Source of the DNA: a virus
Direction: 5' to 3' (one strand)
UHGV virus genome: UHGV-0133287
Length of the DNA: 45,624 bases
A model generated the notes under the pieces. It had not been told where the DNA came from. It ran no database searches and saw only the letters and a program-made list of their open reading frames with translations. How positions within the stretch are numbered: position 1 is the first letter of the stretch; each line of letters begins with the position of its first letter. This document shows, one piece after another, positions 1,502 to 45,624 of the stretch. The position numbers and the translations under genes are program-made.

Positions 1502-1531
1502 GCTTAATTCCTTGAATTAACAAATTGCGAA

Positions 1532-3230: not shown

Positions 3231-3547
3231 TCTCTAACTCCTATCACAAGTTTTGGCCTAATAAAACCATCAGAAACGTCCGTTCTTTCAAAAGTAACAG
3301 AATGGATAATCGCTCTAGGCTCAAACTCACTAATTTTTTGAATTATTTCTCGTGTTGCTGTAGCAATAAAAATTGGGCTAGGGCTATCAACAAGACTTGA
3401 ATTAACTCCTAATTTTCTGGCATATGGTACAGTGCCAATCTGAGTATTAATAATAGTAGAGACATTTTGCAAAACTTCTTCTACAACTGTTTTGGGCGAC
3501 CAATCAATCGAGTAAGAAGGTGATGATATGGTAAACGTATTATTCAT
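3227..3547 (-). CDS. baseplate protein gpW/gp25-like
   Basis: 106-aa ORF between the spike region and J-like gene; size and context fit the gp25/W family. Confidence 0.55.
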   Translation of the reverse strand: MNNTFTISSPSYSIDWSPKTVVEEVLQNVSTIINTQIGTVPYARKLGVNSSLVDSPSPIFIATATREIIQKISEFEPRAIIHSVTFERTDVSDGFIRPKLVIGVRE

Positions 3548-4628: not shown

Positions 4629-4630
4629 AA

Positions 4631-5632
4631 TTAATACCCATTAATTACTCTTCGGACATCAATCGAGGTGGTATAACCACTAGCCCCAATTGAATGCACA
4701 GCTTTCGATATAAGATATTTTCCAGAAAATGAACCGAATCCGTCCAGATTTATAGTTACACCAGCTACCAATCTGGTGTCTCCAACCAATACTAAAGATC
4801 CTGTATTTTGATATCTATTTTTAAGCCGCAAAGCAGCCTTTGCCTTACGTTTTGCTTCATCTAAATTAGCTACCAGTTTTCTTATCTTAAGATTCGCCCC
4901 TTCTTCTACGGATGGATCTACCCAAGTATACGAAAGCGACTTTCTTTTTTTAGGTACGCGATATTTGCACGTGCAACTTTTATACAAATCTGTAGATTGT
5001 GTGCTAAAGCTATATCTGATTATCTCATCAATACCTAACGTAAGCGTAGCGATAGGATCTTTTTGCTCAAACATCTCTTGAGCAAATATTATTAATTGGC
5101 TATCAGTGACCTTTAACGACAACCCTTCATCCTGGCATAGTCGATGGAGAAATTTTAAATCGCTTTCCTCCATTTGATCTTCACGCGCATAATATGGATT
5201 ACTATCACCATCAATAAGAAACAACAGTTCAAGGTTAGCTAATTTAGCTATAGAGGTTGCTATATCTTTAAGAGTTGTTTTTTCCCATGCATTACTTTTT
5301 AAATCACGTCTAATGCCTGATGAAACAGGAACAGAAACAGCAGTCACCTCAACAACAGAAGGTGATCCAGAGCAAGTTATGCCATCTACCTGGAATTTCC
5401 CGCACTCAAGGACGATTTGATTTATAGGCTTAAAGCTCAAATCAATAAAATCACCCTTTTTAGGTGTCCAGTCTCCAGACCATTTCCCATCATCATTTTT
5501 TAATATAATAGAAATATCATCGACCTGACCATCTTCATTATCTGTATAAGACATTGACAAAACATCAGGTGACATATGAGCGGTAATATTTACATTCTGA
5601 TATATAACATCAAAAAGCGTTTTACGTAACAC
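4631..5632 (-). CDS. tail protein, gpD-like (late control D family)
   Basis: 333-aa ORF between the X-like and V-like genes, the context of the D protein in P2/Mu-type tails. Confidence 0.45.
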   Translation of the reverse strand: MLRKTLFDVIYQNVNITAHMSPDVLSMSYTDNEDGQVDDISIILKNDDGKWSGDWTPKKGDFIDLSFKPINQIVLECGKFQVDGITCSGSPSVVEVTAVSVPVSSGIRRDLKSNAWEKTTLKDIATSIAKLANLELLFLIDGDSNPYYAREDQMEESDLKFLHRLCQDEGLSLKVTDSQLIIFAQEMFEQKDPIATLTLGIDEIIRYSFSTQSTDLYKSCTCKYRVPKKRKSLSYTWVDPSVEEGANLKIRKLVANLDEAKRKAKAALRLKNRYQNTGSLVLVGDTRLVAGVTINLDGFGSFSGKYLISKAVHSIGASGYTTSIDVRRVINGY

Positions 5633-5840
5633 TATTGCGTCTCCACGGAGGCAAATTGTTTACTGATATTGGCATAACCGGAGCATCAGGAACTTTAAGA
5701 ATAATTCCCGCAGAAAAAAGCACCGTAAAGCGGTGCTCAGTATTAGCATCAATAAGAAGATAAGACAGGTACTCATTACCATACAACTTTAACGCGATAC
5801 TATCCCATGAGTCCCCTTGAACCGTTCTATAATCATCCAA
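5622..5840 (-). CDS. tail protein X-like (LysM-like)
   Basis: 72-aa ORF immediately after the tape measure gene; N-terminus DDYRTVQGDSWDSIALKLYG is LysM-like, as in P2 gpX. Confidence 0.45.
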   Translation of the reverse strand: MDDYRTVQGDSWDSIALKLYGNEYLSYLLIDANTEHRFTVLFSAGIILKVPDAPVMPISVNNLPPWRRNSVT

Positions 5841-8625
5841 AACTTAATCTCCGTTGTTGGAACATATGAGCACTCAATTTCTTCTCAAAATCAGAATATC
5901 CCGCATCTAATGCTCTTTTAGCTGCCGCCTCAGTTTTCTTTGGTGAACCAGCCGGAAGATTGATTACAGGTGAATAGGTTATTCCACCAGTCACAGCATT
6001 AACGTTCTGGCGAGGTCCAGAAGTCCCGGCGGCAGATATCCCGTGAGGTGATAAATTTGATTGCCCGAACTTGGTTGCTATTGCATTCTGTAAGCTGTTA
6101 TTTCTGCTAACGCCTGATGCCAGAGTAGTCATTATTGCACCACCTGACTTTGTTAGCTGTGAGAATGGACCTTTTTTCGCGTCAGAGAACGGTAAATACT
6201 CACGTACAGAAGAAAAAACGCCTTTCACTTCATTAATTAAAGCATTTGCTTTTGATTTTATCCCAGTGATTAACGTCTCAATTATTTTTGCGCCTGACTC
6301 ACTCCAGTTTATTCCAGACAAATAAGCCGTTACAGATTGGAATGCTCTTATAAAGAGTCCAACTGGTGAAAAACGCATAAAAACAGATACCAGTGTATCT
6401 ATGATTTTCTTTCCTGTTTCGCTCCAGTTAATACCAGAAAGGTAATTTGTTGTAAGTTTAAATGCTTTAATTAAGAACGGAAGCGGAGACATCCATTTAA
6501 AAGCACTAATTAATGTACTGTAAATTCTTACTCCTGCCGAACTCCAGTTTATGTTGGAAAGATAATCCCATGCTTTACCAAACATAGATATAATCCATCC
6601 ATTGAGATCAAAGTTTAAGATAAAGTTTTTTATAGCTTCAAACGATTTAACTGTATATTCCTTAACAGAAGGCCAAACTCTGACAGCATAATCTCTGATC
6701 TTATCCCAGTTCTGATAGAGCAATATTCCTGCGGCAACCAGCGCAGATATAGCCATCTGAATCCACCCGAAGGGTGTTAGCTTTGTCGCTACAGATAAAG
6801 CCAGCATAGCTACCCTACACGCTATAACCACACTTTTCATGGTTAGAAACGCACCTGCCGCCATCACAATCTGAGACACAAAATTGGGGTTGTTAGCTAC
6901 AAATTCACTAATTTTTGTAATCAGCGGAACCAAAACACTAAGCGCGGCATTCAAAGCAGGTTGCAAGGCCTGACCAAAACTTAATGATGCATTGCTAGCC
7001 TGAATACGTAATTGTTTCAATCGCTCCGCATTGTCTTTCGTTATGTTGGCAAAATCGCGGTCAATAACAGCACTTCCAGCACCAAGAGATGTTGCTTTGA
7101 TTCTCTGGTATTCCTTCCAGTTTTGAATCATCGGACGAACAAAGTTCTGAACCTGCATATCGCCAAATAGCTCACCAAGTAACTTCTGATCTCCGTTCTT
7201 AGTCATTTTCATGACAGAATGCATTGCAGCTTCGAATGGATTCTTCCCTTTTTTCTGCGCTGTTGTGACAATTTTATATAAATCTACACCGAAATTTTTC
7301 TTTGCTTTTTTTAGTGTTTCAGGGGAAAGTATTTTCGCCAAAAAGTTGTTCATATTATTAGCAGCCTCATCCGAAGTTGCAGCACCTTTGCGAGCTATCT
7401 GCAAAGCTGCCCCCATCGTCGCGGCGGCTTCTTTACCTCCCATTTTTAATGCCTGGAACTGAGCACCAAGCACAGGAAGATTTTTGGCCATATCTTTAAA
7501 TTCAAAGTTTCCCTCTTTCCCTGCCTGAACCAGAATCCCCATTGCAGACTTCATTTGAGATGGATCAATCTTCAATGAGTCACTTAATGTAAATGATGCT
7601 TTCGAGACATCGAGGATATCAGAGCCAGTAGCTGTAGCTGTTCGCCCAATAGTTAGTAGATTCGCCTGAGCCTCTTTATAATCCTGCCCAGCAGCGACGA
7701 GAAAACCCTGAGCGGCCTGAATATCAGATGCAAACTGGTTGGTGGCCGTTCCGGTAACAAGCATCGCCTGCCCCATCGCCTGAACTTCTTCTGGCTTCAT
7801 ATCTGCCGTAAGACCAATCATTTTGTTTTCACGATTGAAATTTGCTGCATTGTTAGCAGCAGCAAATGCACCAGCCGCTACAGCACCAGTTTGTAATCCT
7901 GACCTTACAAGTTGACTCTTTGCCTCACCAAGATGCTCTCGCTTCAATTCACGCTGCCTTTCCAACGCGCGGTTTAACTCCTCCTGAGCACGTTTTACTG
8001 CAAGAACATTTTTCCGTGCTTCAGCCAACGCATTTTTATAGCTGTTAATTTTATCAATACGTTGTTTTTCTAATGCCCGGTTAAGTTCCTCCTGCTGTTT
8101 TTTCACTTGCTGAACATTTGCTCTGGCTAAAGCCAAAGCCGTTCTGTAGCGGTTAACCTGCTCAACGCTACGGACCTGAGCCTCACGATTACGATCAATG
8201 CTGGCTTTAAGCTCTTTCTCTCTTGAGGCCAAAGCTCTGGCAGATGTATCAGCTCCCTGATAGGCAGACTTTAAAGCGGCCAGTTCTTCACGCTGAGAAC
8301 GTAGTGATGCTCGTAAATTCGATGAATGTGTTTTTGCCTTCTCAAAGTCACGAAGCATCGCTCTGGTTGGATTGGCCGTGTTTTTTATTTGCTTCTGTAA
8401 CTCTTCAACGCGAGCGGCAGCTTTATGATATTCGAGGGCAGTCTGTCCAACCTTTACTTTTACAGATTGTAGCTTTTGAATTTCCCCATGTTCTTTCGTT
8501 AATCCAGCAAGCTCGGCATTTAATTTAGCAACAGCCTGATTAGCTGTAGTAAAACTTTTGGGGAGAGAGGCGGCAACTTTGCCGCCAATTTCAAAAGCCA
8601 GCTTAAAGTTCTTATTGCTGGCCAT
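5833..8625 (-). CDS. tail tape measure protein
   Basis: 930-aa ORF directly after the frameshifted chaperone pair; N-terminal half is Ala/Lys/Glu-rich coiled-coil-like with repeated segments, C-terminal half has hydrophobic stretches. Confidence 0.8.
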   Translation of the reverse strand: MASNKNFKLAFEIGGKVAASLPKSFTTANQAVAKLNAELAGLTKEHGEIQKLQSVKVKVGQTALEYHKAAARVEELQKQIKNTANPTRAMLRDFEKAKTHSSNLRASLRSQREELAALKSAYQGADTSARALASREKELKASIDRNREAQVRSVEQVNRYRTALALARANVQQVKKQQEELNRALEKQRIDKINSYKNALAEARKNVLAVKRAQEELNRALERQRELKREHLGEAKSQLVRSGLQTGAVAAGAFAAANNAANFNRENKMIGLTADMKPEEVQAMGQAMLVTGTATNQFASDIQAAQGFLVAAGQDYKEAQANLLTIGRTATATGSDILDVSKASFTLSDSLKIDPSQMKSAMGILVQAGKEGNFEFKDMAKNLPVLGAQFQALKMGGKEAAATMGAALQIARKGAATSDEAANNMNNFLAKILSPETLKKAKKNFGVDLYKIVTTAQKKGKNPFEAAMHSVMKMTKNGDQKLLGELFGDMQVQNFVRPMIQNWKEYQRIKATSLGAGSAVIDRDFANITKDNAERLKQLRIQASNASLSFGQALQPALNAALSVLVPLITKISEFVANNPNFVSQIVMAAGAFLTMKSVVIACRVAMLALSVATKLTPFGWIQMAISALVAAGILLYQNWDKIRDYAVRVWPSVKEYTVKSFEAIKNFILNFDLNGWIISMFGKAWDYLSNINWSSAGVRIYSTLISAFKWMSPLPFLIKAFKLTTNYLSGINWSETGKKIIDTLVSVFMRFSPVGLFIRAFQSVTAYLSGINWSESGAKIIETLITGIKSKANALINEVKGVFSSVREYLPFSDAKKGPFSQLTKSGGAIMTTLASGVSRNNSLQNAIATKFGQSNLSPHGISAAGTSGPRQNVNAVTGGITYSPVINLPAGSPKKTEAAAKRALDAGYSDFEKKLSAHMFQQRRLSFG

Positions 8626-21214: not shown

Positions 21215-22594
21215 CTACTTAATCAACGGCCGGAAAGCCGCCAGCACATCATCAGATCGTCCGATTGTTGAACCACCAGGCAACGGCAACTCAAACTCAA
21301 AACGAACAGCTTTCTCCAGACTCGCCCAACTAAGGGAATCATCGTTAATGACGTGCAAATACCAGCTCTTACAGTTGAATATTGACCGCTTAATCCTGAA
21401 ACCATGTACACGACACAACTGCTTCACTTCCTCATCAGAGTGAAACTTCTGGTAAAACCAGTGCCCCTTCCGGTACAACGCGGTAAAACCGTTATGATCA
21501 ATAAAATAAAGCCGGCTTTTGGAACTCGCCGCTTGTGTCTGCTTCAGGACTGTTTCCAGCTCTCCACGGCTACGGCCAGAAAAGAATATTGACCCACCAG
21601 CTTTACACAGCCCTTTCAGAACCGTCAGAACGGACCATTCAGCCTCGACACTATCGACCGAGTTCAAAACGCTATCGCAAATCACGTAGTCGTAACGCCC
21701 TCGCGTTTTTAAGTCGTCCACCAGCGTATCAATCATCCGGTTTGTTGCGGTCCTATCCAGAGTGTTTCCAGCGCCCTTACGGCGGAAAAGCTCAAGATCA
21801 TGCAGGTTATATCCCTTTGCCCTGAGCATTCGCGCGTAGTCTCCCTGACCCGAACCAAAATCAATTCCTCTTGGCGTCTTGGCAATGATCGGGAGGATCA
21901 ACGACTCATACAGGTTTGATTTCAGGCTGCCACCATTACGCAACCGCATAAGCTGCGCATACGTCTGGATGTATGTTGTTTTCTCCAGATGAGAATACTC
22001 AAATACACCATAAGTTTTATTCAGATAACTTTGGTATTTTTCCTTCTCAACATCAGGGATCACAAACACCGTTAGCGGTGTGCGCGTCATCTTCGCTGCT
22101 AATGCATACTGAGCACAGTGAATAACCTCGCCAGACTGCGTAGCAACACAACCACCCCACGGACCATACTTGATAACCAGTTCCGCTATGTTCTTTCGAA
22201 CATATGCCATTTTCGCGCGCATATTGCCTGAGATCTGGCTTGCCGATACCTGAACAAAACCATGCTTATCTTCCAGACCGGACACCCTGCAACGCTCATC
22301 TCCGCTATCAAAATCCGTTCCGTTATGCAGTTGGTTAAACCGTACTTCGTCGTATACCGTCGTTTCACAGGGCAACACATACACCGCAGCACGCGTTATT
22401 CCCAACTTACGTAGCGCCTTCGTCCTTTGGTGTCCCGCCACCAGCAAATCGCCGCGCACTATCAATGGCTTCACAAGCCCCAGCTCCCTGACGCTTTCCG
22501 CCAGCCTCGCAAGATCATCCTCACCGATAAAACGCGGGTTATATTCCGCACCGCGTAGGTGCGTTATGTCGTAATTGAGGTGAAGCATCAGCAC
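21215..22594 (-). CDS. ParB-like N-terminal domain fused to class-I SAM-methyltransferase-like domain
   Basis: 459-aa ORF. N-terminus has LVAGHQRTKALRKLGI (ParB/Srx GxxR motif). C-terminal half has a glycine-rich IDFGSGQGDYA (SAM-binding motif I-like) and YDYVICDSVLNSV. No DPPY/NPPY or PCQ motif seen, so it does not look like a classical DNA amino- or C5-methyltransferase. Confidence 0.55.
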   Translation of the reverse strand: MLMLHLNYDITHLRGAEYNPRFIGEDDLARLAESVRELGLVKPLIVRGDLLVAGHQRTKALRKLGITRAAVYVLPCETTVYDEVRFNQLHNGTDFDSGDERCRVSGLEDKHGFVQVSASQISGNMRAKMAYVRKNIAELVIKYGPWGGCVATQSGEVIHCAQYALAAKMTRTPLTVFVIPDVEKEKYQSYLNKTYGVFEYSHLEKTTYIQTYAQLMRLRNGGSLKSNLYESLILPIIAKTPRGIDFGSGQGDYARMLRAKGYNLHDLELFRRKGAGNTLDRTATNRMIDTLVDDLKTRGRYDYVICDSVLNSVDSVEAEWSVLTVLKGLCKAGGSIFFSGRSRGELETVLKQTQAASSKSRLYFIDHNGFTALYRKGHWFYQKFHSDEEVKQLCRVHGFRIKRSIFNCKSWYLHVINDDSLSWASLEKAVRFEFELPLPGGSTIGRSDDVLAAFRPLIK

Positions 22595-24793: not shown

Positions 24794-24994
24794 TTAATGC
24801 TCGCGTCGTCCGGCGACAACTTCGGATTTGTATTTCAGGTCGCCCAGCAAGAATTGCAGTTTAAGCATCTTTGCCGCCGTGTAGTTCCCTGATTCCACAA
24901 CCTCTTTCATGAGGTCATAAACGGCCGCTACATCATCAGCCAGGAACTCTTTGCGTTGCTGCTCAGTCGCACGTTTGAAGGAAATACGCATCAC
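24794..24994 (-). CDS. hypothetical protein
   Basis: 66-aa ORF overlapping the upstream gene stop by 4 bp. Confidence 0.3.
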   Translation of the reverse strand: MMRISFKRATEQQRKEFLADDVAAVYDLMKEVVESGNYTAAKMLKLQFLLGDLKYKSEVVAGRREH

Positions 24995-25260
24995 TCATCA
25001 TCTCCTGCCGCACATACAACCTCACAAAAAACATCAGCGGAATGTTTCTCCTTGAACGAATGACGCTCAAAACCGCACTCAATATCAGGCGCAAAAACAT
25101 CCACCACATACGGTCTTTCAGAATGTTCGTTTTCCCAACGATAAACCGTAGTGACGTTGAAATGTTTTAACGCTTCACGGAACTCAACGCTGCCCGTCAG
25201 GTTTTTTGAGGTCAGGTATTGCAGGAGGTTTTTTACTACTTCACGGTCTTGTACTTTCAT
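24991..25260 (-). CDS. hypothetical protein (first gene after leader copy A)
   Basis: 89-aa ORF whose ATG follows GGAGATAACCCG at the end of the conserved leader cassette. Confidence 0.35.
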   Translation of the reverse strand: MKVQDREVVKNLLQYLTSKNLTGSVEFREALKHFNVTTVYRWENEHSERPYVVDVFAPDIECGFERHSFKEKHSADVFCEVVCAAGDDE

Positions 25261-25377
25261 CGGGTTATCTCCGGTTTAACCAGGGCGGGTATCGCTCGGT
25301 TTCGGGTATAACCATAGGAAATTTTTTCCCATCCGTAAAGCGCTTTTTATATAAATCTATAATTATATAATTCTATG
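25261..25377 (-). promoter_or_regulatory. conserved promoter/leader cassette, copy A
   Basis: About 115 bp nearly identical to 32437-32557 and 41314-41430. In the minus-strand sense it carries an AT-rich palindromic block (TATATAATTATAGATTTATATAAA), a TTTAC(G/A)-N17-TATGGT promoter-like pair, then a ~45-nt leader ending GGAGATAACCCG-ATG. Confidence 0.5.
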
Positions 25378-25960
25378 CCACTTGCCAGAGAGCATCATGC
25401 AACTGGATACCTCCATTGCACTGGTTGCCCCAGCCATGCCAGCCATCAGGTAAATCACCGCGAGCAAACAGCTCAATACGAGGAACATCACCTAACAGCT
25501 TTACCAGCTTGTCACGGACCACATCAGGCTTCCGAGAATGCTCCAGACGAGGCGATGTAAACGACTGAATGATCCCCGCATCAAGACGGGTCGGCAGTTT
25601 GCCTTTTACCGCAAACAAGCAATCTTCACTGTTTGCACGAGTCATATGCCCCATCCCCATCACCAGCTTATCTGGTTGTCGGCTACCACATTTGTTCCAT
25701 GTGAAGCCCTTCATGGTCATCAGCCTGAATCCCCATGCTTTAACCACCAGCAACGCTTCTTCTGGCTGAGTCGGAACCCACCACATGGCCAACAAACACG
25801 ATTCAGGATTAGCAAGCTGCCAGACAGGAATACGAGCAATCTCCTCAGCTTTCATCGTTGGATACTTAAAACCAGCTCCACGATTCCCATCCTTACACTT
25901 GTCTTTGTATTCCCAGGGGGGATCTGCATAAATCAGATTAAACAATGCAATTGCCTCCAT
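25373..25960 (-). CDS. DNA N6-adenine methyltransferase, MT-A70 family
   Basis: 195-aa ORF with N-terminal LIYADPPWEY (the DPPW catalytic motif). Confidence 0.7.
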   Translation of the reverse strand: MEAIALFNLIYADPPWEYKDKCKDGNRGAGFKYPTMKAEEIARIPVWQLANPESCLLAMWWVPTQPEEALLVVKAWGFRLMTMKGFTWNKCGSRQPDKLVMGMGHMTRANSEDCLFAVKGKLPTRLDAGIIQSFTSPRLEHSRKPDVVRDKLVKLLGDVPRIELFARGDLPDGWHGWGNQCNGGIQLHDALWQVA

Positions 25961-26267
25961 GTTAATTGTGCCTCCGGCGCTTATCTCCGGCAGTCATAAC
26001 GCTGGCCAGCTCTACAGCAAACACAACGAAAAGGGCACTAACCAGACTGATTAATGCCCTTGCCTGTTGTGTGCCGGATATCGCCCGACAACGCTGTTTT
26101 GGTAACACGGCTACAGTTCCGTGCCGCTCCAGCTTTTACCCCTTTGCGGATAACAGGCCCTGCCTGTAACTTAGCCCCACGTTCGCCCGAAATGCGCACT
26201 AGGCACGCATAAAGATGAGCACGAAGAAGTAACTCCACCGCGCTTATCTTTATGTGTGAGAGTGAAT

Positions 26268-26343
26268 TGGTGGCCCCTACCGGATTTGAACCGATGACCG
26301 TGCGATTATGAGTCGCCTGCTCTAACCACTGAGCTAAGGGGCC
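26268..26343 (-). tRNA. tRNA with CAU anticodon (Met or lysidine-type Ile2)
   Basis: 76-nt minus-strand sequence GGCCCCTTAGCTCAGTGGTTAGAGCAGGCGACTCATAATCGCACGGTCATCGGTTCAAATCCGGTAGGGGCCACCA folds by hand into a cloverleaf: 7-bp acceptor stem, GCTC/GAGC D-stem, CUCAUAA anticodon loop, TTCAAAT T-loop, encoded CCA. The 5' half resembles E. coli ileX as I recall it. Confidence 0.8.
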
Positions 26344-26512
26344 ATATTTGATTTGTTTGTCTGGTGTGGCGCCGCGCACGAAAATCCCAGCCAATAAATT
26401 CAGGATTTTTGGGCGCGGCGGCATATCAGACAAACATGGTTGATGCGTGCGCCCATGAGAAAAGCGCATAGAATGTTGTAACTATATATTTATATAATTA
26501 TAGAAATATATA

Positions 26513-26722
26513 TTACTTTGGACAGTTGATTTCCCATGCCCTGTTATGAGCCAGAATATCTTTCTTTGTCTGTCGGTCCATAACATCGATGTCGTGATCA
26601 GTCAGGTAGATGGGCTTTACCCAATCACAGGCGGTATCAACCACCACCGGGACGCTTCCACGACTCCCGCAGCTCGCGATCAACATCGTCATCAGCCATA
26701 TGGTTAACACTCTGCTGTACAT
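26513..26722 (-). CDS. o-spanin (Rz1-like lipoprotein)
   Basis: 69-aa ORF with signal peptide and lipobox LIASC; overlaps the 3' end of the Rz-like gene in another frame. Confidence 0.5.
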   Translation of the reverse strand: MYSRVLTIWLMTMLIASCGSRGSVPVVVDTACDWVKPIYLTDHDIDVMDRQTKKDILAHNRAWEINCPK

Positions 26723-31013: not shown

Positions 31014-31312
31014 GCCACAGCCCCTCTCAACGGCTTAACTTTGGCTAATAAGGTGTTAAACAACATGGAGTTAGGATTCATGCCAAATGGCAATTCCGGT
31101 TTAGCGGAGTAGTACAGGCAACCATTTATTTTCCTGGTTGTTATCTGTCCTTCGGCAACCATGCTTCTCAGTCTGCAACGCATAGAGTTCTGCGACACAC
31201 CAATGTGCTCCGCGATTACGTCCACTTTTGAACATGGGTGATCGGTCAGGAAATTAATCACATCTTGGGGGTTAATAATTTTGCGTTTCATTGTCGAGGC
31301 GTCCTTATACAT
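31010..31312 (-). CDS. hypothetical DNA-binding protein
   Basis: 100-aa ORF preceded by the AT-rich palindromic motif at 31311-31337. Confidence 0.3.
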   Translation of the reverse strand: MYKDASTMKRKIINPQDVINFLTDHPCSKVDVIAEHIGVSQNSMRCRLRSMVAEGQITTRKINGCLYYSAKPELPFGMNPNSMLFNTLLAKVKPLRGAVA

Positions 31313-31336
31313 TTATATAAATATATAATTCTATAT

Positions 31337-31358
31337 ACGGCGGGAGACATCCCGCCGT
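31337..31358 (-). terminator. hairpin (possible attenuator) after the 355-aa gene
   Basis: Perfect 9-bp stem ACGGCGGGA-GACA-TCCCGCCGT followed on the minus strand by an AT-rich run that merges into the palindromic promoter motif. Confidence 0.35.
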
Positions 31359-31368
31359 AGGCTTACTG

Positions 31369-32436
31369 TCAGGCTTTCAATAGCGATTCTTTCAGATATC
31401 GGGCATCAGCCAGGGCGTTTGGAGTAATCTTGCGAACCCATGCATTACGGGTTGGACTCCACTTAAAGGCGCGTGATTTAAGCAGCGAACGAATGTTTGC
31501 CTCTGGTTTGCCAGGGAAATAAAACAGGATGCGGTTATCCTCTGGATCTATCTCCATAGAAAAGCCGTCGTATTCTTCGCGCTGTGCTCCTGTTACAGAC
31601 TTGACCGATTCAAGCTCCTTAATACGGCTCTGTAGTCGTTTGATTTCGGCGTTATTGTTGCTCAGTGCGTATGAAGGGAATCCGATGCGCCCACAGAAAT
31701 CTCCGGCCAGTAACTCTTTGGCTTCGCTTTCTGTAAACCTGAGATCGATTAATGCAGAAAGCTGCTGTAATTGGTCTTTTTTGTATTTGCGAATGGCCTT
31801 ATTTGCGGCCTTCATTTTGACGTGTGACTTCATGCAGCCTTGCAGCTTACGAAGCAACTTAAATAGCGCATCAGGATCATCAGACGAAATTCCATTACGA
31901 CCAACACCTGCGGCTTTGCTCTCGTAGTGTGATGCTTTACTTTCGCATTCAACAAACGCTTTTCTGAATAACGCATCAGCTTTAGACAAACGGCGGCGAT
32001 GGCCTTTCGCGCTATAATGGTCAACTAAAATCGGCTGGCCTAACGGGATCACATCCAACAGGTCATGCGCTCGCTTATGCGCTACCGCACCTTCTTTTCT
32101 GGCTTTTTCTGCACGAGCAATATATCGGGCAAGACGCGCGTTCTGGCGTTCCTGATAGGTGTTTACGTAATCATCTCCGCGCTGCTGCTGTTCAAGCCAT
32201 GCTTTGCGCAGATCTTCTGTTACGTCCACCAGCTCCGCAGGGATACAACCAGTTTGGGCTTCATAAGAGTAACCATCCTCATAGATACGCCCATCGTCTT
32301 CAACAAAGAAAAAGGTTTCGTGCTCATCGCTTTTGACCATACGACCATTAACATGGCGTAATAGGTAGCCAGTATCAGTGCTTAACAGGCTGTTAGGGTT
32401 GTTGATCCAGTCAGAAATAATTACTTGTTTATTCAT
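31369..32436 (-). CDS. hypothetical protein, first gene after leader copy B
   Basis: 355-aa ORF with a charged coiled-coil-like central region; possibly a DUF3560-like phage/plasmid protein (uncertain). Confidence 0.4.
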   Translation of the reverse strand: MNKQVIISDWINNPNSLLSTDTGYLLRHVNGRMVKSDEHETFFFVEDDGRIYEDGYSYEAQTGCIPAELVDVTEDLRKAWLEQQQRGDDYVNTYQERQNARLARYIARAEKARKEGAVAHKRAHDLLDVIPLGQPILVDHYSAKGHRRRLSKADALFRKAFVECESKASHYESKAAGVGRNGISSDDPDALFKLLRKLQGCMKSHVKMKAANKAIRKYKKDQLQQLSALIDLRFTESEAKELLAGDFCGRIGFPSYALSNNNAEIKRLQSRIKELESVKSVTGAQREEYDGFSMEIDPEDNRILFYFPGKPEANIRSLLKSRAFKWSPTRNAWVRKITPNALADARYLKESLLKA

Positions 32437-32557
32437 CAGATTTCTCCGGTTTAACCAGGGCGGGTATCGCTCGGTTTCGGGTATAACCTTAGGAAATTTT
32501 TTCCCACCTGTAAAGCACTTTTTATATAAATCTATAATTATATATTTATAGATTTTC
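32437..32557 (-). promoter_or_regulatory. conserved promoter/leader cassette, copy B (directly downstream of the Q-like gene)
   Basis: Near-identical to copies A and C over about 110 bp; begins 49 bp downstream of the Q-like gene stop. Confidence 0.5.
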
Positions 32558-34956: not shown

Positions 34957-34975
34957 TTAACGAACTCCAGTTAAA

Positions 34976-35093
34976 ACCACGATATGTGGTATTAAAACCA
35001 CATATCGTGAGTTTTTCAATGGGCGAAACAAAAAATAACCTTCTATTTGTGGTCCACCTCTCGTCTTACCATGTGAAAACCACTAAATGTGGT
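34976..35093. promoter_or_regulatory. immunity operator cluster (ACCAC-N5-GTGGT)
   Basis: In the 174-bp divergent intergenic region: accacgatatgtggt (34976-34990), accacatatcgtga (34997-35010), inverted gtggtccacc (about 35048-35057), accactaaatgtggt (35079-35093). A fourth site accacattttgtggt lies at 35830-35844. Confidence 0.55.
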
Positions 35094-35130
35094 AATGTAT
35101 AAATAACCCACCATTCACGATTGATGAGAC

Positions 35131-35787: not shown

Positions 35788-35879
35788 TACACAGCACGGC
35801 GGAAGCCGTGCATTTCTACGCTCAAAAAAACCACATTTTGTGGTTTTGACAACATGTAAAAGTATAAAAGAGGCTACGC

Positions 35880-36254: not shown

Positions 36255-36389
36255 CTGCAAGCGGGCTAACGCCCGCTTATATGATTATAGATTTATATAA
36301 TTATATAAAACGCTTTTCATCCGCCAAAAAGTTGGTTATGCTTACCTCGTTCTATAAATATAGATTTATAGAATTATATAATCAAACAC

Positions 36390-37058
36390 ATGGAGTCTCG
36401 ACAAATGACTATCTCTGTAGGTATTTTCAACGGAAAAGGCGGCGTAACCAAATCAACAATTGCCCGTGCTTTAGCAGTTGCTTATGCAAAGGCTGGCTGG
36501 AATGTATGCCTGATCGATATGGATGTGCTTAACGGAACGGTAACGCGTTGGGTACAACGCAGAATGGCCAACAATATCGAACCAGCAATCGCGGCGCAGC
36601 CGTGCGGCACACCATCACAAGTCCAGAAAATCATCGAATCAGAAGTATACGACCTGGTTATCGTCGATGGCGGTGCCTACGCATCTGAATCAGTACCGAA
36701 GCTATCTGAATTTCTGGATATGGTTATTTTGCCAACCCGATTCTCTACCGATGACCTGGAAACCACCGTTAACACTGCTCACGGCATCGTTAAAAAGGGT
36801 GTACCAATCAAGAAAATTTGCATGGTGTTTTCCGGCGCGGCTGAAAACGAAGCTGACTATATTGAAGCCCAAGAGTACCTGGCTAATACGCCATACTTTG
36901 TTGTCGATAAGTACATTCCCCACAAGCCAGCTCTGAGCAAAGCTCAGGATAAGGGCTTAAGCCTCATTGAGTGCTCATACGTTGCACCACGCAAAAAGGC
37001 AGACGACGTTATTCAGGGGATTATCAACCAGCTTGAGGCTCTGACTACTGCCGCGTAA
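36390..37058 (+). CDS. parA: ParA-family partition ATPase (small ParF-like)
   Basis: 222-aa ORF with a deviant Walker A (GKGGVTKST). Alternative start at 36405 (MTISVG...). Confidence 0.8.
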   Translation: MESRQMTISVGIFNGKGGVTKSTIARALAVAYAKAGWNVCLIDMDVLNGTVTRWVQRRMANNIEPAIAAQPCGTPSQVQKIIESEVYDLVIVDGGAYASESVPKLSEFLDMVILPTRFSTDDLETTVNTAHGIVKKGVPIKKICMVFSGAAENEADYIEAQEYLANTPYFVVDKYIPHKPALSKAQDKGLSLIECSYVAPRKKADDVIQGIINQLEALTTAA

Positions 37059-37093
37059 TATATAATTATAGATTTATATAAGAGGGGATACAC

Positions 37094-37342
37094 ATGGCCG
37101 CACCATCAAAACCACCAAAGAAGAACAGCAAAGGCGTACCGCCATCGATCGAACAACCGCAGGTTTTCGACCCGACTGAAACGCCAACCAGAACCAAATC
37201 AGGTGGGGCACAAATGGCGTTTAACGTCGACCCTGAATTTAAACGCGAGTACAAAACGTTCGCCAGCTCAATGGATATGTCATTGAAAGAAGTGCTGACA
37301 AAATCTTTTGAGTTACTCAAGGCTCAATACAACCAGAAGTAA
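37094..37342 (+). CDS. small partition DNA-binding protein (ParG-like, RHH)
   Basis: 82-aa ORF 36 bp after parA; basic disordered N-terminus, C-terminal AFNVDPEFKREYKTFASSMDMSLKEVLTKSFELL consistent with a ribbon-helix-helix fold. Confidence 0.45.
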   Translation: MAAPSKPPKKNSKGVPPSIEQPQVFDPTETPTRTKSGGAQMAFNVDPEFKREYKTFASSMDMSLKEVLTKSFELLKAQYNQK

Positions 37343-37562: not shown

Positions 37563-37586
37563 ATAAAAAAGGCCCCCGAAGGGGCC
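37563..37586 (-). terminator. intrinsic terminator (minus-strand; convergent transcription stop)
   Basis: GGCCCC-CGAA-GGGGCC hairpin preceded on the plus strand by an A run, giving a U run on the minus strand. Confidence 0.45.
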
Positions 37587-38456
37587 TAATCGCTACTTGC
37601 TGCTAATGTTTATCGTCACATTCAGAGCGTTATCAGTAATCTTCCAACCCTCCCCATGTGGCGTAAACAAAGCTCCAGTAACAACGATAAAAATACACAT
37701 ACAGTATTTTTTCATTGTGTGGCCCTTACAGGCCGTTTCACGGCATCTCCACCGACGAAAATGACGCGAGAGCAAGCACTCCGCTTGTGCTTGCGTGTAC
37801 GGCAAGTGGATGATCCTTTCCTTAAAGTCGGTGCCCGGGTGCGAATCGGCGAAAAGGCCCCAAGCCATATTACACGTCCTCGCCTTCATAATGAAGGAAT
37901 AACAATTGCTTTTATTACATGTAATTACATCCGAAGAAGTTAAAAAACTTCATTCTGCATGAACTAAGGAACTAAATTTCTTTATATGAATAGTGGACTA
38001 TTCACCTCAGTTGAGTAAGAATAGATACGCCGCTTGTGCTTGCGTGGTTGTTTACACAACGACGTTATGCTGAAAGGACCGCGAATCCGATCAGCACGAA
38101 AGAACCGTCCTCAATAGGGCGGTTTTTTTGTTTCTGCCTACCAATAAACCCACGCTATGTGGTTGTCTCTGTTAAAATCCCGCCGTATTGACATGAATGC
38201 GCCATTGGTGGACACTTTCCGAGCCGTAGCAAAATCTACGGTCGGGATTGGCGTCCCGATTGCACAATGGCGCATACCGCGTTAGCGGTTTTTTTATGCG
38301 TAAAGCACTGCTACACCCGAATTATGGTGGGGCGTGCGGGGGCGGAGAAATCCGCGCCGGTTTGTCATTGTGCCGGTTACGCCAACCCTGTACGTCTCAC
38401 CACCATATTGATTGGCGTCATTGGTGGTGATAGTTCCTTTAATCGGAGATATCACA

Positions 38457-38648
38457 ATGACAAACCTACCCCATGACTATTACGTCAACCTCGTAAAGAT
38501 CCTTCTCAAGAAAGCCTCATATGCCGATAAATTCCGCCTGGCTGAAATCATCGAGCGCGAAGCTATGCGCATCGCCAGCAACGATAACGCTGTTTCTGAC
38601 GCAAAAATCTCCCTCGTAACCAAAGTAGTTATGGGAGGTGCAAAATGA
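38457..38648 (+). CDS. small ORF translationally coupled to antirepressor (icd-like position)
   Basis: 63-aa ORF (ATG 38457, GGAG RBS) whose stop overlaps the start of the next gene (ATGA); the ORF track shows a longer version starting 38412. Confidence 0.35.
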   Translation: MTNLPHDYYVNLVKILLKKASYADKFRLAEIIEREAMRIASNDNAVSDAKISLVTKVVMGGAK

Positions 38649-39787
38649 AAACGCTTCCGACCGTTAACACCCTACAGCCTATCCTGCATAACCAGATCCC
38701 CGTTATCACTAGTGAACTTCTGGCGCAGTTATACGGAACAAAAATCAAAAACATTTCTGATAACTTTCTGAACAACACGACGCGATTCGTAGCCGGAAAG
38801 CATTACTTTAAAATTGAAAAAAACGAATTACGCGAGTTCAAGAACAGACCCGAAACAATCGGGTTAGTTGGTAAAAATGCCCGCTCCCTAATTCTCTGGA
38901 CCGAACGCGGGGCTGCACGTCACGCTAAAATGCTCGAAACCGATCAGGCGTGGGATGTATTCGAACGGCTGGAAGACTGCTATTTCAGCCAGAACGCGCA
39001 AACGGCCGCGACCGTAACCGTCTCGCCAAACAATGCTCGTGAGGTTGTCGATACGCTCAACGCCAAACCGATGTTTTACATTAAGGTGTGCAATAACGAG
39101 CCACTCACAACCTCAGCCGATGTTGCCCAGGCATTCAGCACCACAAACAATTCCATCGTTATGGCCATCGATGCGTTACGCATTCCTCGCACAGCTGCGG
39201 CGCGTCATTTCTTTAAAGAGCAACGACCGTTGGAAGGAAGCGACCGCGAAATAACAATCTATCGCATGACAAAAGACGGATTTACCTTGCTCATGGAGAG
39301 CATCGACGGTCCCGGCGTGAAAGATATCAAGCTGGCCTACATTGAAGCCTTTAACGCTATCAGCAGCGTGTTAAAAACACAGTACGAGCGCGATCTGGCT
39401 AAACGACTGTACCAGGAAAAAACGATTATCCGCGCGGCAACAGAGCATAATCGGCTATTAACGGAACCGAACTACAGGAAGGAACTAATCAAGGAGTTTG
39501 ACAAGGCAACAGGGAAAACCAAAGCGGCGCTAAATCTGCCAGCAATGACTCAGGAAAATGTGATATCAGCCTTACTTCTTGATCTACTCAGAAACGCCAG
39601 AGCACTTATCAGCTTTGACGAAAACCTGAATCCTCAACTCAAGCTACTACCACCGACAGGCAAAGTAGTCGACCAGGCTGATCACAACAGCATACTCAGC
39701 GTACTGGATGCAAACCTGCCAACCAGGACACTACAGGATCTGATAAAAACATGTGCTGATAAGCTGGCACAGAAAAGCAGACCATAA
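38645..39787 (+). CDS. putative antirepressor / phage regulatory protein
   Basis: 380-aa ORF whose N-terminal ~110 aa (ITSELLAQLYG...GAARHAKMLETDQAWDVFERLEDCYF) resembles anti-repressor N-domains; preceded by an about 700-bp structured leader. Confidence 0.45.
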   Translation: MKTLPTVNTLQPILHNQIPVITSELLAQLYGTKIKNISDNFLNNTTRFVAGKHYFKIEKNELREFKNRPETIGLVGKNARSLILWTERGAARHAKMLETDQAWDVFERLEDCYFSQNAQTAATVTVSPNNAREVVDTLNAKPMFYIKVCNNEPLTTSADVAQAFSTTNNSIVMAIDALRIPRTAAARHFFKEQRPLEGSDREITIYRMTKDGFTLLMESIDGPGVKDIKLAYIEAFNAISSVLKTQYERDLAKRLYQEKTIIRAATEHNRLLTEPNYRKELIKEFDKATGKTKAALNLPAMTQENVISALLLDLLRNARALISFDENLNPQLKLLPPTGKVVDQADHNSILSVLDANLPTRTLQDLIKTCADKLAQKSRP

Positions 39788-40932: not shown

Positions 40933-41313
40933 TTACTTAACGAGGAATAAAAATGGTTTATTGTTCGGCGGTGTAATCGGGGCTGGCTCGCTTTTGCTCA
41001 TGCGGTCAGTGTACCAGGCCAGCTCCTTGTCAAAGTAAGCCTGATTAAAATAGGCCATGAATGTGGTTTCAAATCCATAACGACCGCTAATACGCAGCAT
41101 CTGATTGCCGTTCTCTGTTTCCAGATATACCTGGGCACGCTCCTGATTCTCCTTCAGCCAGGTTAAAGCCTCATCGCACGAGGACACACGATACTCATCA
41201 TCGTAGCCATCATCGATGCGGCTTGAAGAAGAACGGCAAATCACGCCAACAGAACCAGCCAGGATAGTTTGAATTTTAAGGAAAGCGTTTTTGCGGATTT
41301 TAATCATGCTCAT
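40933..41313 (-). CDS. hypothetical protein, first gene after leader copy C
   Basis: 126-aa ORF following GGAGATAACCCG-ATG. Confidence 0.35.
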   Translation of the reverse strand: MSMIKIRKNAFLKIQTILAGSVGVICRSSSSRIDDGYDDEYRVSSCDEALTWLKENQERAQVYLETENGNQMLRISGRYGFETTFMAYFNQAYFDKELAWYTDRMSKSEPAPITPPNNKPFLFLVK

Positions 41314-41430
41314 CGGGTTATCTCCGGTTTAACCAGGGCGGGTATCGCTCGGTTTCGGGTATAACCATAGGAAATTTTTTCCCACCTGTAAAGCACTTTT
41401 TATATAAATCTATAATTATATAATTCTATG
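41314..41430 (-). promoter_or_regulatory. conserved promoter/leader cassette, copy C
   Basis: Near-identical to copies A and B, including the identical RBS/start context of copy A. Confidence 0.5.
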
Positions 41431-41432
41431 AG

Positions 41433-41461
41433 CACAAAAAAGCCCCTTTGCAACAGGGGCT
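41433..41461 (-). terminator. intrinsic terminator after toxin-antitoxin operon
   Basis: AGCCCCT-GTTGCAA-AGGGGCT hairpin followed on the minus strand by TTTTTTG. Confidence 0.45.
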
Positions 41462-41476
41462 TATCATTCGTTCTGA

Positions 41477-42367: not shown

Positions 42368-42658
42368 CTATTTTTGTGACTTTACTCCTGGCATATGGAC
42401 TTCCCAGCGACGAATCCCCATAGCTGCGCAAAAATCAGCCACATAATTCAATCCCGCCCATTCGCGGATACCACCACGGGCTTTTTCAATGAAAACGGCA
42501 ATCCCTTTTTTATTGAGAGCAAAAAGCCGCCAGCTTTTTGTCACTTCGTCCTGGGTAGCCACAACACAAGTGAAAGCTCCCATGCGATACAGGTCCAAGA
42601 ACTCTTTGCGTGTTTTGCGTACAAGTTCCATAACAAACCTCATATTTGCATGTTTCAA
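42368..42658 (-). CDS. hypothetical protein
   Basis: 96-aa ORF between the TA module and the replicon. Confidence 0.3.
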   Translation of the reverse strand: MKHANMRFVMELVRKTRKEFLDLYRMGAFTCVVATQDEVTKSWRLFALNKKGIAVFIEKARGGIREWAGLNYVADFCAAMGIRRWEVHMPGVKSQK

Positions 42659-42954
42659 ACATCTGTTTTGTTATCAATGAAGATTAACCCTAACCCAGCG
42701 AAGTAACACAGCAGCGCCCAGGCTGCATACGGAATGCTGGATCTGGATGTGGACTCCTTTAACATCTGCCAGTTGCGAACATTGCGACTATCTTTTAAGC
42801 CTAGTTTTTTGGCTAACTGCGAGCCGCTCATTCCGGTCAGGCCAATGACTGCCCGAACTTCTCCACATGTAGGAGATTCCCATTCATCCGCTTTTTTTAA
42901 ACAAGCCGGATTCAACATTTTTAAAACAGTATCTTTATCCATAACCATCTCCAT
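42655..42954 (-). CDS. hypothetical protein with C-terminal hydrophobic segment
   Basis: 99-aa ORF; possible HTH (GMSGSQLAKKLGL) and a C-terminal TM-like stretch. Confidence 0.3.
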   Translation of the reverse strand: MEMVMDKDTVLKMLNPACLKKADEWESPTCGEVRAVIGLTGMSGSQLAKKLGLKDSRNVRNWQMLKESTSRSSIPYAAWALLCYFAGLGLIFIDNKTDV

Positions 42955-43435
42955 TTATTATATCTACGATGGTAGGAAATCTTTTCCTATGTGGCAATAG
43001 AAATTTACTACATTGCGTATAAGACAAGTTTTCTATGTCTAATAGGAAATGATGTTTCTTACGTTTTATCGCGTTCTGATGGCTACTGTGTGCGTATTTA
43101 TCGACGTTTATTGATAAGGCTCGCCTCTTCCTCCTGCAAAGCCCGGCCGTAGGCCTTATTTCGGCCTTATATAAATTGATTTTGTATAGTTCGAAACGCG
43201 CCGTTTCGAAAAGGATGATCAGGCTGCTCCATGCCTCCGGCAAGTGCCGGAGGAGGTATATTTGAGCGTAGCGACTCGAACCGGCGCGAGCTTTAGCTCG
43301 CTGCAAGGGCGAACATATTCACAGGCAAAGCCTGCGTAAGTTAAATAAAGAAAGTCTTAATAAAAGAAAGTGATTTTGCATTTATTTGTTTAGTGCATCT
43401 ATTATAAAAAACCATTTGCATATACATATCAAAAC

Positions 43436-44744: not shown

Positions 44745-45299
44745 TCAATGATTCCCAGCCGGAAACCTGCGGTAAAGCGTGGATAAGGTAACATCGAAGA
44801 TAATCGCTATCCGCTTACGTGAAACACCATTCGCAATAAGCCTTCCGATCTGTTCCCATTGCTCTGGTGCCAGCTTTGAGCGGCGTCCTCCTATCCTGCC
44901 GTTAGCCCTTGCCACCGCCAATCCTGCACGCGTTCTTTCAATCATATTTTCCCGCTCCATCTCTGCGACTGCACTCAGCATCGTGTAGGCAAAGCGGCCA
45001 ATTGAAGTGCTAATTTTTATCCCTTCCGTAATCGAAATAAACTCAATGTCGTTTGATAAAAAATGGTTAAGTAAATCAACAAGATGAATCAGAGAACGCC
45101 CCATTCGGTCCAGCTTCCAGACAATAACCGTATCGCCCGGTCGTAACACCTTCAGTAGCTTATCAAGTCCTGGTCGTTTTGATTTAGCACCGGATATTTT
45201 ATCTTCAAAAATCCGGTCACATCCTGAACTCCTGAGCGCCTCCAGTTGTAATTCCAAATTCTGGTCAAAAGTTGACACCCTCGCATAACCATATTGCAT
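44745..45299 (-). CDS. serine recombinase, DNA invertase (Gin/Hin/Cin/Pin family)
   Basis: 184-aa ORF opening MQYGYARVSTFDQNLELQLEAL..., with the conserved catalytic Ser region and a C-terminal HTH; strongly resembles Gin. Confidence 0.85.
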   Translation of the reverse strand: MQYGYARVSTFDQNLELQLEALRSSGCDRIFEDKISGAKSKRPGLDKLLKVLRPGDTVIVWKLDRMGRSLIHLVDLLNHFLSNDIEFISITEGIKISTSIGRFAYTMLSAVAEMERENMIERTRAGLAVARANGRIGGRRSKLAPEQWEQIGRLIANGVSRKRIAIIFDVTLSTLYRRFPAGNH

Positions 45300-45308
45300 A
45301 CTTTCTAA

Positions 45309-45624
45309 ACCACGATTGTTGCTAAAAGCGGGAAAAAATATCGTTCAGACGACACAGAGGCAATTCGCAAAAACCTCGGTTTGCAGGAAACGATAAACAA
45401 GGCTTCTGGCGCATTACAGAAAAACCAGAACGGCGCAGATATTCCTGGAAAAGATACCTTCACCAAAAATATTGGTGCCTGCCGCGCATATAGCGCATGG
45501 GTGGATATTGGTGGCGATAGTCAGGTCTGGACAACTGCGCAATTTATTTCGTGGCTGGAGAGTCAGGGGGCATTTAACCATCCTTACTGGATGTGCAAAG
45601 GCTCATGGGCTTATGCAAATAATA
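45309..45624 (+). CDS. alternative tail-fibre C-terminal segment, start-less (runs off window end)
   Basis: Open frame with no ATG/GTG start from the stop at 45306-45308 to the window end; encodes ...AIRKNLGLQETINKASGALQKN..., paralleling the ...EYLGLQETVNRAGNAVQKN... junction of the fibre gene at the window start on the opposite strand. Confidence 0.55.
45367..45392. other. gix/hix-like invertase crossover site
   Basis: GCAAAAACC-TC-GGTTTGCAGGAA, an inverted copy of the 125-150 site; 68 bp from the invertase start codon. Confidence 0.5.

Follow-up and report, generated by a model that had tools for sequence, protein, structure and literature searches.

Tandem 8-bp box arrays at the parA locus and in five other intergenic regions of an enterobacterial phage-plasmid, putative operator and centromere sites of a ParG-like protein

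Virus genome UHGV-0133287 (45.6 kb, 45% GC), which at its full length of 45,624 nucleotides is referred to below as the window, represents nearly the whole of a circular phage-plasmid of approximately 48 kb. In an earlier note on this DNA, an AT-rich palindromic motif was described at eight loci, including both sides of the partition gene parA. Here, these loci, the proteins that may bind them and their counterparts in related elements were analyzed computationally. Approximately 60 plasmids of E. coli, E. albertii, and E. fergusonii, among them that of the reference strain ATCC 25922 (48.5 kb), are 97–99% identical to the window, as are the Yersinia phages vB_YpM_39, 41, and 44. The element was found in 74 of 5426 complete E. 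coli genomes, ATCC 25922 being one of the 74, nearly always as a plasmid. According to the annotation of a 98.9%-identical plasmid (L001), the element has P2-like myovirus structural genes and lysis genes, a divergent early operon, genes for a CI-like repressor, RepA, and a tail-fibre invertase, and a RelE/HigA-type toxin-antitoxin pair; its small ParA gene is followed by a small hypothetical one.

Partition locus

The partition locus comprises the following features (arrays are numbered s1 to s8 along the window).

36277–36308, + strand: array s5, four units, TTATATGA TTATAGAT TTATATAA TTATATAA
36314–36342, + strand: predicted sigma70-type parA promoter (TTTTCA, 17-bp spacer, TATGCT), read from the sequence
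36350–36381, + strand: array s6, four units, TTCTATAA ATATAGAT TTATAGAA TTATATAA
36405–37058, + strand: parA, encoding a 217-amino acid (aa) Walker-type partition ATPase of the type Ib size class, without an N-terminal DNA-binding domain
37058–37081, + strand: array s7, three units, ATATATAA TTATAGAT TTATATAA
37094–37342, + strand: ParG-like gene, encoding an 82-aa candidate ribbon-helix-helix centromere-binding protein, the proposed array binder

Array s5 follows a terminator-like hairpin (36261–36276) and ends 5 bp upstream of the −35 hexamer of the predicted parA promoter, and s6 extends from about the predicted transcription start (approximately 36349) to a point 23 nt 5′ of the parA start codon. 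The units of s5 and s6, which flank this promoter, occur in both orientations (TATAGA and TCTATA). Pfam matches of ParA to CbiA, ParA, and MipZ cover residues 5–186; the protein also matched phrog_164 and is annotated in L001 as 'ParA family protein'. The 82-aa gene starts 36 nt past the parA stop codon. Array s7 fills the gap between this stop codon and the ribosome binding site (RBS) of the 82-aa gene, leaving no space for a promoter. Arrays flank parA on both sides, as had been claimed, and s7 lies 12 nt before the ParG-like start (37081 to 37094). As in type Ib partition loci, a small Walker ParA gene directly precedes a small gene, and arrays of direct and inverted boxes are present 5′ of parA.

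Box arrays

All eight motif loci were found in the window, within a few bases of the positions given in the earlier note; refined coordinates are those of the feature lists above and below. Using TATAGATTTATA with at most two mismatches, 44 matches were obtained against 5.1 ± 2.4 expected, a count reached by 0 of 100 shuffles, and the motif is in clear excess over shuffled sequence. A weight-matrix score of at least 18 for three consecutive units was reached solely at the eight loci (observed 21–35), the maximum in 100 first-order Markov simulations being 16.9; as the unit matrix was built from the arrays themselves, this test is partly circular, though the gap is large. A degenerate three-unit pattern matched exactly the eight loci in the window.

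The AT-rich, self-complementary character of the motif was borne out, but not its description as a single 24-mer: each locus consists of three to four tandem 8-bp units, aligned in register, with consensus TTATAKAW. T4 and A5 are invariant across 31 units, and the lag-8 autocorrelation of the arrays is 0.74, corresponding to an 8-bp period. All eight arrays are located in non-coding DNA, s5 and s6 overlapping only a spurious 83-aa open reading frame (ORF). Dispersed arrays could not be distinguished in sequence from those of the partition locus. In the near-identical plasmid L001, the array corresponding to s7 (38758–38792, equivalent to window 37058–37081) carries one additional 8-bp unit, TTATAGTT, from which it appears that arrays evolve by whole units.

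Each array was said to lie just upstream of a gene start in matching orientation. The distance to the next start codon is 12–96 nt. Orientation is weak evidence, because the commonest unit, TTATATAA, is identical to its reverse complement, so that polarity is defined only by the TTATAGAT unit, and because half of the six polar sites stem from a single repeated cassette. What was taken for a gene after the second site is a mechanical ORF with a tRNA-Met gene inside it.

Dispersed arrays and a repeated promoter-leader cassette

Five arrays are located outside the partition locus, three of them at the head of a repeated promoter-leader cassette.

25347–25378, − strand: array s1, GCATAGAA TTATATAA TTATAGAT TTATATAA, directly past the stop codon of the MT-A70 methylase gene, at the head of cassette copy 1
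25261–25346, − strand: cassette copy 1, −35 TTTACG (25334–25339), −10 TATGGT (25311–25316)
26482–26513, − strand: array s2, ATATATAT TTCTATAA TTATATAA ATATATAG
31305–31336, − strand: array s3, ATATAGAA TTATATAT TTATATAA ATGTATAA
32522–32553, − strand: array s4, ATCTATAA ATATATAA TTATAGAT TTATATAA, at the head of cassette copy 2
32437–32521, − strand: cassette copy 2, −35 (32509–32514), −10 TAAGGT (32486–32491), leader, preceding the DUF3560/primase-like gene (31369–32436)
41400–41431, − strand: array s8, TCATAGAA TTATATAA TTATAGAT TTATATAA, following a terminator-like hairpin (41440–41462), at the head of cassette copy 3
41314–41399, − strand: cassette copy 3, −35 TTTACA (41387–41392), −10 TATGGT (41364–41369), leader, preceding a 126-aa gene (40933–41313)

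Arrays s1, s4, and s8 form the 5′ ends of a 121-nt repeat (family D2; 25257–25377, 32432–32552, and 41310–41430, − strand). The order within the cassette is array, 7 bp, −35 (TTTACG or TTTACA), 17-bp spacer, −10 (TATGGT or TAAGGT), 50-nt leader with a small hairpin, GGAG, and ATG; the spacer holds the inverted repeat GGGAAAAAATTTCC. In copy 1, the 50-nt leader contains a hairpin at 25278–25301 and GGAG, and precedes an 89-aa gene (24991–25260). Ending 7 bp upstream of the −35, the three arrays are situated at about −38 to −70 of the predicted cassette promoters, for which transcription is predicted to start at about 25304, 32479, and 41357. Separate arrays are found in this way at three predicted promoters that do not belong to the partition genes, as in omega-type systems.

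The cassette design is also present three times each in related plasmids of Salmonella (L123) and Serratia (L122), where the outer stem of the spacer repeat has changed from AACC/GGTT to GGCC/GGCC with pairing kept. The distance from array to −35 is constant in the E. coli, Salmonella, and Serratia cassettes despite the changed box sequence. A fourth promoter of the same type is found without an array at 42969–42997 (− strand; TTGCCA, 17 bp with TAGGAAAAGATTTCCTA, TACCAT), 5′ of a 99-aa gene (42655–42954), and has a counterpart in Salmonella L123 near position 16342. Because this promoter occurs alone, array and promoter are separable modules.

Array s2, which like s3 comes after a hairpin or the end of an operon, lies 139 nt 5′ of the tRNA-Met gene (26268–26343, − strand) and of a long hairpin, with the MT-A70 gene after these. 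The hairpin, located between s2 and tRNA-Met, is very stable (85 nt, 26354–26436, − strand); the 139-nt fold that contains it has a predicted energy of −49 kcal/mol (z = −4.8). The ORF at 26038–26469 is probably no gene, since tRNA-Met lies within it. A terminator-like hairpin (31338–31357) precedes array s3, whose end is separated by 13 nt from the start codon (ATG, 31291) of the gene for a 93-aa MarR-like protein; the junction after s3, TATAAGGAnCCTCGACAATG, resembles that of the array closest to parA.

ParG-like protein

The 82-aa protein has the sequence MAAPSKPP...GGAQMAFNVDPEFKREYKTFASSMDMSLKEVLTKSFELLKAQYNQK. In its AlphaFold2 model, residues 1–40 are disordered (predicted local distance difference test score, pLDDT, 52–67) and two helices (47–59 and 62–81) are confidently predicted. 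They are preceded by a predicted beta-strand, QMAFNV (residues 40–45), a short segment of alternating hydrophobic residues. A disordered tail followed by a strand segment and two helices would fit the topology of a ribbon-helix-helix monomer, as judged from the model. In proteins of this type, the strand forms only in the dimer (PMC5016525).

Following a search of 177,635 Protein Data Bank (PDB) sequences with a 13-sequence family profile, ParG (1P94) was the best match (E = 0.013), over the ribbon-helix-helix domain, with QMAFNV aligned to RVNVNF of ParG. No match was obtained in PDB sequence searches with the single protein or with a 7-sequence profile, nor in fold searches with the monomer model. 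Pfam gave no match for the window protein at E ≤ 0.1 or at E ≤ 10, whereas a distant homologue (L155) passed the Pfam ParG cut-off (22.7 against 21.4 bits). For Omega_Repress, the window protein had no match and L155 only one at E = 0.21. Type Ib proteins of this kind have a flexible tail with a conserved arginine, the ATPase-stimulating finger; in the tail considered here, arginine R33 is shared by all members of the 7-sequence alignment, whereas it varies in the alignment of 13 sequences. When paralogues were sought in the window, none was found, the protein being the sole family member there. On the basis of model and profile, the designation 'ParG-like' is a reasonable, not a proven, assignment; the protein is no formal member of Pfam ParG.

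Relatives and dispersal of the arrays

Relatives were collected by protein-based searches. A Salmonella plasmid encodes a ParG-like protein that is 89% identical and carries arrays of the same type at syntenic places. The ParG-like protein of a complete Serratia plasmid is 39% identical; this plasmid has lambda-like structural genes and the same CI/early/ParA/ParG-like backbone. Four viral contigs (L149, L150, L152, and L154) have ParG-like proteins of 40–46% identity, and approximately 70 further parA/parG-like loci were obtained from genomes and metagenomes.

The layout array, −35, 17 bp, −10, array 5′ of parA is kept in the Serratia plasmid, L149, L150, and L152; arrays upstream of parA are also present in the Salmonella plasmid and L154. 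At the locus of each phage-plasmid of the clade, the k-mers repeated most often belong to the arrays that bracket the parA promoter, and these arrays recur at 3–6 other places. Their sequence differs: the box is TAAATAAATATT in the Serratia plasmid and L152, AAATCTTT in L149, and AATCTTTAATTAAATAATTA in L150, and L154 has both TTCTGGCT and TTCTGTAT. The array period is 8 bp in five of the seven elements, the Serratia plasmid and L152 giving peaks at 4, 8, and 12 bp.

Dispersal was scored by requiring at least nine 8-mers shared with the 140 nt 5′ of parA, with gaps of at most 12; a first metric (at least four shared 8-mers) was dropped as too permissive, controls giving 2–11 clusters. Six extra arrays were found in each of the window, the Salmonella plasmid, and L150, five in L149 and L152, four in the Serratia plasmid, and three in L154, against 0.03–0.5 with control seeds from the same loci. 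Most other ParA/ParG-like loci had no or one extra array, usually just downstream of parG, with L151 (four) and L176 (three) as exceptions. Array dispersal is, on this comparison of sequences, a derived trait.

In many members outside the phage-plasmids, a second array is found just 3′ of parG (e.g., L126 at 10233, L128 at 10247, and L139 at 10205). The viral contig L151 (IMGVR_UViG_3300046507_000633, GC 59%) has a ParA/ParG-like pair and at least nine dispersed TTAGCGAA/TTCGCTAA arrays within 7 kb (244–7338), a case of array dispersal outside the enterobacterial clade. Erwinia phage LS-2018a (L124), which has a related ParA/ParG pair, showed no enrichment of dispersed boxes (6 observed, 4.8 expected), its sole box being TAGCGAA, 25 nt before parA; it carries twelve perfect, iteron-like 22-bp direct repeats (21921–22185) 1.8 kb downstream of the pair.

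An exact 16-mer scan of viral contigs was not a means of recovering relatives, at least 120 single chance matches being obtained in AT-rich contigs; multiple matches were found only in L043 and L065. A natural swap of the partition module, or integrated relatives, were sought in E. coli genomes. As only near-identical plasmids and one 32-kb deletion derivative turned up, this search offered no natural experiment. In the derivative, pCREC-544_3 (NZ_CP024829.1, L156), the whole region that extends from the ParB-like genes past cI to the end of parA/parG-like is deleted; RepA, the structural genes, the toxin-antitoxin pair, and the third cassette copy are retained.

Covariation of box and beta-strand

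Boxes in the 140 nt upstream of parA were compared with the three predicted DNA-facing residues of the beta-strand in approximately 40 non-redundant loci (L125–L235). Loci with the strand QM[A/S]FNV had 7 TATAKAWT and 0 TAAAKAWT boxes, against 4–8 TAAAKAWT and 0 TATAKAWT in the four loci with xMNFN[V/M]. The strand GLNFKV pairs with a CAGAAA box, DLNFKV (10 non-redundant loci, GC 0.34–0.59) with (T)AGCGAA, and PLNFKV (20 loci) with [A/C]ACGAA; the box classes of the latter two differ (Mann-Whitney P = 6e-5 and 3e-5). As these loci, most of which do not belong to the phage-plasmid clade, are devoid of its other genes, the relation between box and strand is tied to the partition module itself. 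The pairs may represent a readable recognition code for this ribbon-helix-helix family, with natural variants as its source.

Other candidate binders

The CI-like protein was rejected as array binder. The cI/early control region (34957–35130) is without an array and has ACCAC-N5-GTGGT palindromes, which flank the CI-like gene (34978–35009, 35079–35093, and 35830–35844). An AACCAC half-site is constant in the cI/early region of all clade members, though their arrays differ. These palindromes are probably the CI-like protein's own operators, as far as their position and conservation indicate. The MarR-like, 101-aa helix-turn-helix, ORF126, ORF89, and ParB/Srx proteins were likewise rejected, being missing from the array-bearing complete Serratia plasmid; this includes the three ParB/Srx-domain proteins of the window as binders of the N15 type. 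Analogues of ORF124 are unlikely binders, as they are acidic, helical, and poorly conserved.

Other features of the element

Rfam matches to isrK and C4 antisense RNA were found at 38223–38407 (+ strand), directly 5′ of an ORF6N/antirepressor-like gene (38645–39787). By sequence similarity, the two together are classified as a P1/P7-type immI (c4-ant) module in a phage-plasmid. Just 3′ of the parG-like gene, a full-length Rfam match to ryfA (135 bits) at 37565–37862 (− strand) may represent a type I toxin-antitoxin-like RNA locus adjoining the partition genes. Inverted repeats of 55 nt (93–147 and 45370–45424, 78% complementary) are located at the window ends, adjacent on the circle, where they adjoin a serine recombinase gene (44745–45299) and tail-fibre genes; they are probably the crossover sites of a Gin/Cin-type tail-fibre inversion switch. 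In the tail-fibre region at the window edge (534–926), three 93-nt direct repeats (family D3) are 74–83% identical and spaced 132–168 nt.

Discussion

The presence, position, and 8-bp period of the arrays were read directly from the genomes, as was the covariation of box and strand. With moderate confidence, we regard the arrays as operator and centromere sites for a type Ib partition protein of the ribbon-helix-helix class; they would have spread from the partition locus to further intergenic regions, where this protein would act as a global regulator and the genome as a distributed centromere. Three observations support this reading: the arrays bracket the parA promoter, they consist of 8-bp boxes like those of TP228 (PMC3130281), and box and beta-strand covary. 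Among the three readings offered in the earlier note, the ParG-type operator/centromere and the site of a global regulator merge into this one, which is the best supported; the phage-specific promoter class was not supported in the form proposed. A wider scenario is put forward more tentatively, as possible: a type Ib partition protein may have been co-opted as genome-wide regulator in an enterobacterial phage-plasmid clade, its arrays being copied onto a mobile cassette and to operon boundaries so that the genome became a distributed centromere.

Several points weigh against an assignment of all arrays to the ParG-like protein. The covariation classes are few and phylogenetically non-independent. 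When whole-protein identity was compared with array k-mer similarity in seven elements, the correlation was no better for ParG (rho = 0.30) than for ParA (0.57), with CI at 0.24, although whole-protein identity would fail to discriminate because specificity sits in three residues. The window protein is without a Pfam match and below the gathering score of ParG (PF09274); its link to ParG is borderline or transitive. Beside s2, s3, or s7, no promoter could be recognized, which makes a transcriptional role hard to assign there. The whole clade also shares CI, RepA, and six early genes of unassigned function, among which an alternative binder of the dispersed copies is possible. Finally, we infer from sequence that the ParG-like protein binds the arrays, and likewise the sign of regulation, the centromere activity, and the roles in regulation and stability.

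Some of these points would fit another element-encoded regulator, either a conserved early-operon protein or a late activator, with the ParG-like protein at most sharing the sites at the partition locus. The clade-wide early genes, CI, and RepA provide candidates, three arrays occupy activator-like positions (−38 to −70) of the repeated promoter, and the identity correlation is not specific to the ParG-like protein. We nevertheless consider such a regulator unlikely, since the same box types are found 5′ of parA in approximately 30 loci outside the clade that lack those early genes, and there track the ParG-like beta-strand. Moreover, tandem 8-bp boxes in both orientations are a known signature of ribbon-helix-helix partition proteins (PMC3130281), and the dispersed arrays cannot be told apart by sequence from those of the partition locus.

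Alternatively, the ParG-like protein could bind all arrays solely as a distributed centromere, their closeness to promoters being incidental because intergenic DNA is the sole free space. N15 has four dispersed SopB sites (PMC3235114), s7, s3, and s2 are without an adjoining promoter, and arrays often follow terminators, as expected of plain operon boundaries. This is quite unlikely, however, given that three arrays keep a fixed distance from the −35 of the repeated promoter in E. coli, Salmonella, and Serratia despite the change of box, that arrays bracket PparA, and that type Ib centromere-binding proteins double as repressors (PMC5016525).

A promoter class, an UP element, or a target of host nucleoid proteins (H-NS, Fis, IHF), without any phage-encoded binder, is suggested by the extreme AT-richness, the many TATAAT-like hexamers, and the location of the arrays in intergenic DNA near gene starts. 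Nevertheless, a forward sigma70 promoter was sought inside the arrays and none was found, the repeated promoter type exists as a unit without array at 42969–42997, and at s7 there is no space for the leader of a transcript. The boxes are different in relatives from closely related hosts, and the dispersed arrays of L154 (TTCTGGCT) and L151 (TTAGCGAA) contain G/C and are therefore no generic AT-rich promoter or UP element. Overall, this explanation is very improbable. Chance low-complexity sequence, for which the frequency of the exact 16-mer in AT-rich viral contigs at large might speak, is practically negligible and was refuted: none of 100 shuffles or simulations reached the observed counts or scores in a window of 45% GC, array positions are syntenic in Salmonella, and the other clade members examined show the same dispersed design with other boxes, as their dispersal counts confirm.

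In the plasmid prophage P1, copies of the C1 operator are scattered over separate operons as single asymmetric 17-bp sites of a dedicated repressor. The present element is likewise a plasmid prophage with many copies of one site type, and it has a P1-type c4/ant region. It differs in that separate palindromes near cI appear to serve its CI-like repressor, the scattered sites being arrays of the partition type.

Closest in architecture is the ParF/ParG system of TP228 (parH, OF), in which the gene for a small Walker ATPase precedes that of another small protein, whose tail is disordered and whose C-terminal domain is of the ribbon-helix-helix type, as is predicted here. Its ACTC boxes with regular 4-bp spacers, giving an 8-bp period, are direct and inverted and each bound by one dimer; short boxes at this period, in both orientations, lie 5′ of the ATPase gene in both systems (PMC3130281). 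TP228 has 20 boxes in one region of approximately 160 bp, whereas approximately 31 boxes are spread here over eight loci and 16 kb; the boxes are of the TATAKA type instead of ACTC, and the window protein is below the Pfam ParG threshold. In pSM19035, omega has three separate parS arrays overlapping the promoters of delta, omega, and copS (PMC5016525). The omega/delta system thus resembles the present one in combining a ribbon-helix-helix partition protein with repeat arrays at several separate promoters, so that centromere function and control of transcription come from one protein; in our case, both the fold and the binding are presumed. It differs in using 7-bp heptads in runs of 7–10 on a Gram-positive plasmid, at copy number and maintenance genes, compared with 8-bp units in runs of 3–4 on an enterobacterial phage-plasmid, adjoining phage genes.

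N15, RK2, and pSM19035 are known to have centromere-like sites at scattered positions (PMC3235114). For N15, a role of Sop in late gene expression, with a positive effect, is indicated by the title of Ravin et al. 2008, as cited in PMC11652158. N15 SopAB (IR1–IR4) is similar in that a phage-plasmid has partition-protein sites scattered near phage regulatory regions, but it is a type Ia system with a large helix-turn-helix protein of the ParB family, SopB, and single inverted repeats, in contrast to the type Ib-like 82-aa protein and tandem 8-bp arrays considered here. Its short runs of 8-bp instead of 7-bp units, a ribbon-helix-helix-like instead of a ParB-type protein, the phage-plasmid context, and the joining of arrays to a repeated promoter-leader cassette set the present system apart from these. 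A search of the available literature gave no description of the motif of this element or of a ParG-type global regulator in a phage-plasmid, and the vB_YpM_HQ103 paper contains no text bearing on the motif.

We propose the following mechanism. The 82-aa ParG-like protein would bind the boxes, probably as one dimer per box with neighbors cooperating, and so coat each array. On TTATAGATTTATATAA, two dimers would be placed at 8-bp spacing with Q40, A42, and N44 facing the major groove. At the partition locus, the arrays would occlude the parA promoter from both sides, resulting in autorepression, while the same complex would serve ParA as centromere; s7, which abuts the parG-like RBS, may be a third array in this role. 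With arrays copied to five other intergenic regions, next to cassette promoters, the partition protein would also regulate phage genes globally while the element is a plasmid, most likely by repression or modulation. At the three cassettes, coating from −38 to −70 would most simply repress or modulate RNA polymerase binding, and the differing number and quality of units among arrays could give graded control, as for omega (PMC5016525). Arrays s2, s3, and s7 might act as roadblocks or purely as extra centromere sites.

The regulated set would comprise a late-region gene pair, the DUF3560/primase-like gene, and the 126-aa gene, and possibly a lysis-proximal operon and the tRNA/methylase unit. 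As the ParG-like protein must be present in the plasmid state, these genes would be coupled to lysogeny. In the wider scenario, occupancy of the arrays would tie replication, lysis, and late gene expression to the plasmid (lysogenic) state and possibly, via titration, to genome copy number.

Occupancy of all eight arrays by the ParG-like protein, if borne out, would have several consequences. In a genome of mostly hypothetical genes, the arrays would serve as markers of operon ends and of a repeated expression cassette. The approximately 40 protein/box pairs would amount to a recognition table, in which Asp is paired with GCGAA, Pro with ACGAA, Asn/Asn with TAAA, and Ala or Ser/Asn with TATA; artificial ribbon-helix-helix factors could be designed with its help. 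The arrays would also constitute a cis-regulatory map for a widespread E. coli phage-plasmid that has also been isolated as Yersinia phages. The system would then correspond to omega, but in Gram-negative bacteria and on a phage, and would be the type Ib equivalent of the scattered Sop sites in N15; it would support the view that partition proteins have repeatedly been recruited as global regulators of mobile elements.

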